A program made the position numbers and the translations under genes. This document shows positions 30,687 through 31,977 of a DNA stretch of 64,000 nucleotides, in pieces. The stretch spans positions 25,234,001 to 25,298,000 of the forward strand of contig OZ024754.1 of the NCBI GenBank assembly GCA_964016885.1, given 5' to 3'. The DNA comes from Eledone cirrhosa. Lineage: Eukaryota. How positions within the stretch are numbered: the first letter of the stretch is position 1; the number at the start of each line of letters is the position of its first letter. Below the pieces are notes generated by a model. That model did not search any database. It was not told the origin of the DNA and saw only the letters and a program-made list of their open reading frames with translations.

Positions 30687-31015
30687 TACATATATATATG
30701 TGTGACTGTATGTATATATATATATGTATATATATATATATATATATATATATATTTATATATATATATATATATATATATATTTATATATATATACATG
30801 CTACTGTACGTCTGTATGCATATATGTATGTACGTATACATACATACTTACATTTAAGTAAGTGCCGTACTAAGAATCAGAAATTTCATTTCATTTCATT
30901 CTATTCCATTTTAGCGTTTTCGGTGCGCCTGGCCGACTGAACTCACTCAATATGCAAATTAGGCTGCTCAGCCGTTAATTTTCATAAGGAAAGTATATAC
31001 TTTCGAACGTTCAAC

Positions 31016-31052
31016 GCTGACGATAGCTAACAAACTTGAAACTAGTACATCG
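31016..31052 (+). pseudogene. Degenerate family B hammerhead (5' strand of stem I deleted); equivalents near 36817, 42908, 49063, 55146 and 60841
   Basis: CTGACGA TAGCTAACAAACTT GAAA CTAG TA CATCG is retained. It lacks the 23 nt catctggcagaagggtatacggt found in copy 2, and stem II has a G>A mismatch. Confidence 0.8.
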
Positions 31053-31434
31053 TAACTCTGTAAGTGTTGAACAAAAAGGTGACGTGGTTGCCTTAACACC
31101 GTACGGCATAAATCAGGCTGTCCGTTTGTTTACAAACAGACAAAGCGAGCATTATAATAAATGTTCGTTAAACTGATATGTACATATATATATGTGTGCC
31201 TTTATGTATATATATATATATACATGCTACTGTACGTCTGTATGCATATATGTATGTACGTATACATATATACTTACATTTAAGTAAGTGCCGTACTAAG
31301 AGTGAGAAATTAAATTTCATTTCATTCTATTCCATTTTATCGTTTTCGGTGCGCCTGGCCGACTGAACTCACTCGATATGCAAATCAGGCTGCTCAGCCG
31401 TTAATTTTCATAAGGAAAGTATATAGTTTCGAAC

Positions 31435-31521
31435 GTTCAACCATCTGGCAGAAGGGTATACGGTGCTGACGATAGCTAACAAGCTTGAAACTAGTACATC
31501 GATCCTGTGTCAGTGTTGAAC
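31435..31521 (+). ncRNA. Type I hammerhead ribozyme, family B (intact), cassette 1
   Basis: The core at 31461-31501 reads CGGUG CUGACGA U AGCU AACA AGCU U GAAA CUAG UA^CAUCG. Stem I CGGUG/CAUCG is extended by AGGGU/AUCCU, CUGGCA/UGUCAG and GUUCAAC/GUUGAAC. Predicted cleavage is after 31496. Confidence 0.92.
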
Positions 31522-31654
31522 AAAAAGTTGGCGTGGTTGCCTTAACACCGTACGGCATAAATCAGGCTGTCCATTTGTTTACAAACGGACAAAGCGAGCA
31601 TTATAATAGAAGTTCACTAAACTGATACGTACATATAAATATGTGTCCCTGTAT

Positions 31655-31977
31655 GTATATATATATATATATATATATATATATATATATATATATATAT
31701 ATATATATATATATACATATATATATATATATATATATATATATATATATATATATATATAGATATATATATATATATATATATATATATATATATATAT
31801 ATACATGTGTGTGTGCGTGTGTGTGTGTGTGTGTGTGTGTGTGTGTAGTAGTAGTAGTAAGGTTTTCGATGTTGTGATAATGGTTAGCAGCGATGTGTGT
31901 CAAATGGCTATTAAGATAAGTGTGTGTGTGTATGTGTGTGTGTGTATGTGTGTGTGTGTGTGAGTGTGTGTGTGTGT
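31655..31977. repeat. (TA)n then (GT)n/(GTA)n microsatellite cluster with a ~70-bp unique spacer
   Basis: Directly visible; tract lengths vary between the six cassette copies. Confidence 0.95.

Follow-up and report, generated by a model that had tools for sequence, protein, structure and literature searches.

A decayed dimer of a TA-bounded hammerhead repeat, probably a non-LTR retrozyme moved by a Penelope-like element, in a satellite array

The stretch of DNA analysed here (64,000 nt, hereafter the window) was found to be almost wholly a satellite with a 310-nt unit, termed family A, interrupted by long (TA)n runs. A 1.84-kb island free of family A starts at 30.7 kb, opens with a second repeat, family B, and recurs six times, every 5.7-6.2 kb, in step with a higher-order repeat of ~6 kb (Table 1). 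The six family B cassettes carry 0-3 substitutions in 856 nt (>99.6% identity), and as near-identical copies of the higher-order repeat they represent one event; the six-fold presence of the family B dimer is likely to be passive carriage. The first-pass annotation had drawn weight from finding its ribozyme motif in all six cassettes. The core of copy 2 was indeed intact in 6/6, but amplified copies of one event count as a single observation.

The family B unit is a short, tandem, non-coding sequence of low GC content with a type I hammerhead motif. No ORF was detected in it, a tRNA search of the unit found none, and it contains neither an ORF with a reverse transcriptase (RT) plus a GIY-YIG domain at its C-terminus nor any coding remnant; when the 64-kb window was searched by tblastn with two Penelope-like element (PLE) proteins, the best match had E 7.6. 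Degenerate microsatellite makes up about 100 nt of the unit. Insertion in (TA)n was read from three junctions, all at one locus, where the ends fall within (TA)n and no target duplication is readable; the distance from the cleavage site to the downstream (TA)n is 159 nt in family B and 168 nt in family A. A dimer of a 449-nt unit bounded by (TA)n had been proposed: the bounds were confirmed, whereas the copies measure 426 and 449 nt. A fragment of the unit end had also been reported before the first copy, and it was recovered with a pattern that matched family B unit ends alone (18 matches, all on the plus strand).

Table 1. Features of the family B island and positions of its further copies in the window
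Feature	Position	Strand	Remarks
Family A piece, 143 nt	30544..30686	-	Left end TA-joined as standard; ends before the ribozyme; head to head with family B
Family B unit-end fragment, 27 nt	30686..30712	+	24/27 bases as in the end of copy 1
Interrupted (TA)n, junction 1, 84 nt	30713..30796		84-88 nt across the six cassettes
Family B copy 1, decayed, 410 nt (426 with TA junction)	30797..31206	+	
Copy 1 hammerhead core	31017..31047	+	Core letters intact; stem I 5' strand deleted; stem II mismatch at A31034
(TA)8, junction 2	31207..31222		Separates the family B copies; the sixth cassette has (TA)9
Family B copy 2, 433 nt (449 with TA junction)	31223..31655	+	No ORF; highly self-paired
5' arm of 9-bp long-range helix	31288..31296	+	Partner arm 31550-31558
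Copy 2 type I hammerhead	31435..31521	+	Core 31466-31496; predicted cleavage after A31496
(TA)n at family B 3' end, 148 nt	31656..31803		90-148 nt across the six cassettes; likely insertion target
(TG)n and (GTA)n microsatellites and third, unrelated two-copy repeat (32010-32525)	31804..32525		Within the non-A island
Five more cassette copies	36486..61481	+	One per higher-order repeat
Cores of the further cassettes	36817/37266, 42908/43357, 49063/49512, 55146/55595, 60841/61292	+	

The hammerhead described on the plus strand was present as claimed. In copy 2 the core reads CUGACGA-U-AGCU-AACA-AGCU-U-GAAAC-UA-GUA and is flanked by CGGUG and CAUCG, which form the proximal stem I; the entire stem I is interrupted and consists of four helices (7+6+5+5 = 23 pairs). 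Stem II has 4 bp and an AACA loop and is closed by U·U in the place of the G10.1-C11.1 pair, which is absent, and stem III is a 2-bp stem within the palindrome ACUAGU. The elements CUGANGA, GAAA and UH occur in type I order in both family B copies, and the two GUA sites (31047 and 31496) are spaced 449 nt apart, as had been stated. Helices I and II together with a palindrome permitting a dimeric helix III (ACUAGU duplex, -4.8 kcal/mol) were found in copy 2, whereas copy 1 fails in this respect; the ribozyme quoted in the first-pass annotation exists in copy 2 alone. When the window was searched with a relaxed core pattern, 137 matches were obtained, 12 in family B on the plus strand and 125 in family A on the minus strand, while none of 100 shuffles gave a match, so that hammerheads do lie on both strands. 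The 101-nt hairpin around the copy 2 ribozyme folds at z -3.2. The Rfam hammerhead models gave 0 matches at the gathering score and were also missing from the 42 matches obtained when E was relaxed to 5; the microRNA matches of Rfam at TA runs, which were below the gathering score, were dismissed as compositional.

Copies 1 and 2 are identical at 399/426 aligned bases, leaving 27 differences (6.3%). In copy 1 stem I has lost its 5' strand to a 23-nt deletion, and stem II is broken by a G>A change; as a catalytic half it is predicted to be dead, its GUA site still being a possible substrate. The two ends of copy 1 pair over 24 bp (30814-30837 with 31176-31199), and these paired ends are degenerate microsatellite (77-84% alternating dinucleotides) that is sub-terminal, short of the true termini. 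Folded alone, copy 2 is predicted to bury its core in a rival helix, whose pairs have probabilities of 0.78-1.0 when those of proximal stem I have 0.02-0.06; the energy of this fold is lower than that of the ribozyme fold by 4 kcal/mol. The 5' strand of its stem I is also predicted to pair with the 3' strand of copy 1 (-20.1 kcal/mol). The two catalytic halves of a double hammerhead each cut the site of the other copy. Copy 2 could thus cut at 31047, whereas a cut at 31496 would need the broken half of copy 1 or a partner in trans, and little or no 449-nt circle is predicted to arise from this locus, contrary to what had been proposed. With copy 1 broken, the locus falls outside the "active" retrozymes as defined by Li et al. 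2026 (10.64898/2026.07.22.740005). It is a decayed copy, a fossil, while the wider family may still be active. It was also observed that copy 1 carries four private transversions in 9 nt (31052-31062), on the stem I strand facing the 23-nt deletion, a cluster tighter than neutral decay would give.

The relation of the two families was then considered. The 50 full-length family A units measured differ on average by 0.36% from the commonest unit and by at most 1.9% from each other. To the left of the island, family A halts at unit position 143 and it resumes at ~201 beyond 1.84 kb, with no target duplication; the gap between the two pieces also contains the TG/GTA microsatellites and the third repeat. 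Nesting of family B in the family A array, as had been suggested, was not borne out, since there is no clean insertion site and the B copies are 6.3% apart against at most 1.9% for the A units. Judged from these distances, an older family B dimer caught up in a younger family A amplification appears to fit better, and homogenisation of family A could mask its age. Outside the core no similarity between A and B was found, in agreement with the first-pass annotation (local alignment scores of 18-19 vs shuffled means of 18.3-18.5). The term "unrelated" holds for the body of the units but not for the ribozyme, where 20/26 core bases are identical and a common design is seen: U·U replacing G10.1-C11.1, a 4-bp stem II, an AANA loop, GAAAC-NN-GUA and a palindromic 2-nt loop 3. 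The presence of a second retrozyme-like lineage at the locus is supported. As to family A itself, 38 junctions of its pieces (e.g. 29040-29349) with (TA)n fall at one fixed base, located on the 3' side of the cleavage site at a distance of 168 nt, and the pieces often end just 5' of the ribozyme (26 junctions), a single orientation being kept in all 156 matched pieces. In one rearranged piece (30315-30462) a short inverted repeat of a different part of the unit stands in place of the ribozyme's 5' half.

Family B was next followed in four public DNA runs, out of 13 that a search had listed with none recorded as RNA; the four were aligned on copy 2 at 80% likeness, with the unit junction skipped as repeat; counts are of contigs or reads, and summed contig depth was not taken as copy number. 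Run X1 gave 4,771 contigs, namely 286 at ≥99%, 1,306 at 95-99%, 2,376 at 90-95% and 803 below, and in the RAD run X11 73,877 of 12,467,656 reads matched the unit; contigs and reads of these two runs are mostly 90-95% alike to copy 2. Run X1 contains 0.46 of the words of copy 2 and is not the source of the locus; its organism may be a close relative of the window species. From runs under two further organism labels came 43 contigs and 1 contig, the latter spanning 31283-31660 with 24 differences. Family B is dispersed, high-copy and diverse in the window species or a close relative.

The variation in these runs bears on the conservation of core and stems among other copies of the unit, whose lack had been named as the refuting outcome; among the 40 of 90 variant rows listed, conservation was found. 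Only two of those variants fall in 31461-31501, C31470T (core position 7) and C31480T (loop 2), both at free positions, and the latter gives the AAUA loop seen in family A. A31502 is private to copy 2, and the T of the family at this site extends stem I to six pairs. When 35 of the 40 listed rows (five rare rows dropped) were placed on the predicted fold of copy 2, 18 fell at unpaired positions, 7 kept their pair alone, 1 was rescued by a partner variant and 9 broke a pair. Five of these 9 pair-breakers (of 17 variants at paired positions) are accounted for, three being private alleles of copy 2, one (31588) being matched by a linked change at 31571 and one, at 31454, being compensated when the register shifts together with 31452 and 31502; the other 4 are unexplained. 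G31293A and C31553T are complementary and occur at 0.63 and 0.64 of X11 reads and at 0.31 and 0.48 in X1, the pairing being by like frequency and not by linkage. In consensus strings built from loose ends, C31571-G31588 is changed to U-A and, in the hairpin 3' of stem I, G-C to A-U, both in linked form; a further such string (12 contigs, 6,442 reads), read by eye, retains this hairpin with one double and two single changes. The unit folds at z -4.0 to -5.4, and at -2.2 without its TA-rich ends. As structure-keeping variants are spread across it, the whole family B unit behaves as a structured single strand under selection. A helix at 31358-31364/31526-31532 was discarded as a family feature, resting as it does on two private changes in the fold of copy 2.

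At the two-allele polymorphic sites among the listed rows, copies 1 and 2 carry the same allele in 17/17 cases, and both have T at 31311, which is seen in 1-2% of the family; each has roughly 9-15 changes of its own. The two copies probably belong to one subfamily and derive from one template, followed by decay, although the argument from the shared rare allele is weakened by the possibility that the X1 organism is a relative of the window species. A shared element end was at first suggested by the large loose-end stacks and opposite-strand joints of run X11 (31316, 31385, 31403, 31562-31574, 31617) and was rejected: most of these are at AATT sites, with continuations of low agreement, and were taken to be library chimeras.

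A scan of metagenomes with the design shared by A and B gave 87 matches at 86 loci with 32 distinct cores. Most of the 87 were not counted as B-type, being other repeats or chance: a single different repeat family accounts for ~50, several fall within long ORFs of bacterial type, and only 2/87 pair at all four stem II positions in the family B register. Loop 3 is palindromic in 25/32 distinct cores against ~8 expected. When seven well-paired loci were aligned with A and B, 10/12 pairs were seen to change on both sides, an illustration only, as these loci were hand-picked for pairing. At two loci the motif lies 3' of a Penelope-like RT ORF. In L019 it follows, at 417 nt on the 3' side, an ORF of 655 aa that has RT motifs and a GIY-YIG domain (E 1.3e-6) and whose linker, read by eye, is the CX4CXXC of the Neptune/Nematis kind; a search of this protein against solved structures gave 0 matches. 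The L019 ribozyme has U·U, the tetraloop and GAAACGCGUA as in family A. In L011 the motif is 1.27 kb 3' of an RVT_1 ORF (E 1.3e-13). The link to Penelope elements drawn in the first-pass annotation is supported by this common ribozyme subtype. It was also observed that a 154-aa open frame of L019 (1-462, minus strand) starts right after the ribozyme and runs off the contig, as expected for the start of a second tandem element copy.

The core of another locus, L005, equals the family B core at 29/31 bases. Together with L010, L045 and L079 it has (TAACCC)-type telomeric repeats shortly 3' of the ribozyme and a common upstream motif; no RT match was found in these short contigs, and by resemblance they are likely to be ends of telomere-associated, EN-minus type PLEs. 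The telomeric repeat takes the place that (TA)n has in family B, from which these ends differ in stem I and flanks. Beyond the 31-nt core none of the metagenome loci resembles family B, and the B-type core had 0 occurrences in viral contigs and 0 in prokaryote genomes. The AT-rich repeat family among the matches (L001, L002, L004 and ~47 further loci) has a hammerhead whose stem II is of 3 bp and whose loop 3 occurs in two alternative palindromic forms, and in L052 two copies of it stand on opposite strands, ~210 nt apart.

In comparison with published systems, family B resembles the metazoan non-LTR retrozymes defined by Cervera and de la Peña (2020; PMC7229834), being a non-coding tandem unit of low GC with a type I hammerhead and self-paired RNA, of which several families occur per genome (16 hammerhead families in a coral, two in axolotl); its length is at the upper end of their 150-450 bp. 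Of the axolotl ribozymes described there, HHR_Amex2 has the same U·U at the stem II base, and HHR_Amex1 has a weak palindromic helix III that works in dimers; dimers cleave better than monomers. Family B differs from these retrozymes in its (TA)n unit junctions, its ~100 nt of degenerate microsatellite and its broken copy 1. With the Hydra-clade PLEs, as presented by Craig et al. 2021 (PMC8557442), it shares (TA)n targets, a hammerhead near the 3' end, U·U closure (14/26 Hydra-clade rows) and a mostly 4-bp stem II with a tetraloop; stem III has 3-4 bp in 26/26 of those rows, whereas family B has 2 bp with a palindromic 2-nt loop, and no ORF. The same paper gives (TA)n targets for nearly all Hydra families and many Naiad families, a microsatellite bias in Neptune, and inverted truncated copies adjoining pseudo-LTRs (pLTRs). 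In the pLTR hammerheads of PLEs, according to Cervera and de la Peña (2014; PMC4209133), a small palindromic helix III forms between two copies and poorly in a monomer, so that a dimer is predicted to be needed, as in family B; the consensus there keeps G10.1-C11.1, which family B lacks, and no homology extends beyond the 31-nt core. That paper also has hammerhead pairs on opposite strands, 100-700 bp apart, and both it and PMC11167929 have PLE hammerheads cleaving weakly or only with protein; among Xenopus retrozyme dimers, 1/9 cleaved and 8/9 stayed uncut (10.64898/2026.07.22.740005). Opposite-strand hammerheads and several families per genome are already in print. In a literature search that lay outside most subscription journals and used texts available in part, no description was found of a (TA)n-bounded retrozyme or of two families in one higher-order repeat. 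Family B is likely to be a further retrozyme of a kind already known, not a new type of system.

Taken together, we read the locus as a decayed head-to-tail dimer, with a 27-nt remnant, of a ~440-nt non-LTR retrozyme that was moved by a TA-targeting Penelope-like element, and we give this reading a probability of about 0.75. The non-coding, (TA)n-bounded unit with its type I hammerhead motif would be a non-autonomous parasite of such an element. By analogy with the hammerheads known from metazoans, intact copies would give multimeric transcripts that form double hammerheads by way of the palindromic ACUAGU helix III and so cleave, after which a host ligase would close the monomers into circles. 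An RT/GIY-YIG protein of the Penelope type would then nick (TA)n, with cDNA starting ~160 nt 3' of the cleavage site, at the TA-rich junction of the unit, and the RT would run more than once round the template to give whole units and a 5'-truncated remnant. Machinery of the same kind would account for the family A array and the older B dimer both lying in TA tracts.

For the more-than-unit copying step, and for that step only, a DNA-level origin of the dimer is a serious competitor, though we consider it somewhat improbable: unequal exchange between the TA flanks of a monomer in (TA)n, or slippage there, may have doubled it, the 27 nt being the remains of a third copy after a later family A insertion or array rearrangement. 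All three junctions do lie in (TA)n and vary in length among cassettes, the fragment abuts a truncated family A piece in a region full of rearranged ones, and the one long contig of run X5, at 478 nt, is as long as a single unit delimited by TA breaks on both sides, although contigs break at TA runs anyway. The earlier argument that a partial multimer fits reverse transcription is therefore kept for its orientation, while the 2.1 units are no proof of rolling-circle copying, unequal exchange being sufficient to give the same dimer. What favours copying is that the remnant is a unit 3' end lying at the 5' side, the very piece that 5' truncation of a more-than-unit cDNA would leave. Furthermore, family A has the same partial-tandem, TA-joined pattern at its 38 TA-joined ends, and partial tandems are the rule for PLEs (PMC8557442, PMC11167929).

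The source of the unit can also be seen differently, as the 3' pLTR of an autonomous PLE left by 5'-truncated insertions rather than a self-standing retrozyme. The ribozyme subtype and its position relative to the 3' end are as in PLEs, and in Li, Clavereau and Pollet (2026; 10.64898/2026.07.22.740005) retrozymes are derived from pLTRs with their multimers clustered: 24/57 Xenopus families show homology to transposable elements (TEs), the retrozymes matching pLTRs, and 21/22 of these TEs are PLEs. Nevertheless the two family B copies have an identical starting point after (TA)n, one end of the unit pairs with the other, structure-keeping changes run across the whole of it, and there is no coding remnant, which makes a mere pLTR remnant unlikely. 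An active two-strand locus, in which family B inserted into the A array and releases a 449-nt circle from 31048-31496, was judged very unlikely. The intact copy 2 core in 6/6 cassettes and the predicted pairing that would allow a cut at 31047 speak for it; they are countered by the dependence of the cut at 31496 on the broken half of copy 1, the core-burying helix predicted for copy 2 alone, the greater distance between the B copies than between the A units, and the missing clean insertion site. Finally, the 24-bp pairing of the copy 1 ends and the TA flanks would suit a DNA element of the MITE or Helitron type, its inverted repeats being sub-terminal, that inserted in (TA)n and captured a hammerhead. 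This we regard as scarcely credible: the true ends carry no terminal inverted repeats, the pairing being sub-terminal and microsatellite-derived, and an RNA intermediate fits both the head-to-tail order of the copies and the covariation seen in internal single-strand helices.

Within the preferred reading of a retrozyme moved by a PLE, a more specific version is doubtful, namely that the retrozyme homes to microsatellites, the UA-rich hairpin of the circle annealing to nicked (TA)n and priming the Penelope RT. The telomeric PLEs offer a parallel, where reverse telomeric repeats adjoining the hammerhead would prime likewise. The one PLE studied in vitro (PMC11167929) shows internal priming without target homology, which counts against templated priming, and its protein-assisted ribozyme is dispensable for insertion. 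If homing were true, two lineages of the same design would accumulate, in either orientation, in shared TA tracts and would give rise to a macrosatellite with transcripts that could be cut on either strand.

Family B adds an invertebrate-type retrozyme family whose natural variation tests RNA structure, with two subfamilies, free core positions and compensatory changes that span 260 nt. By tying a retrozyme to (TA)n targeting it also yields a short list of candidate mobilisers, the Hydra, Neptune or Naiad PLEs, so that the question of who moves animal retrozymes becomes testable in this host.

Several minor observations were made in the reads and in the island. In run X11, 12 reads have 31455-31478, i.e. 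24 nt of the ribozyme, duplicated around a (TA)7A insert, and in other reads an inverted piece of the unit takes the place of the entire stem I hairpin. One contig of run X4 matches the ribozyme core alone (31455-31490) between unrelated flanks, and its 3' strand pairs with the same 5' stem I strand; it is probably another family with this core. The third repeat of the island (32010-32525) consists of two copies with a period of 277-303 nt, blocks that are 89-95% alike and long internal inverted repeats. A 450-nt stretch of it folds at z -8.4, with no hammerhead or Rfam match, and it looks like a foldback or MITE-derived element.
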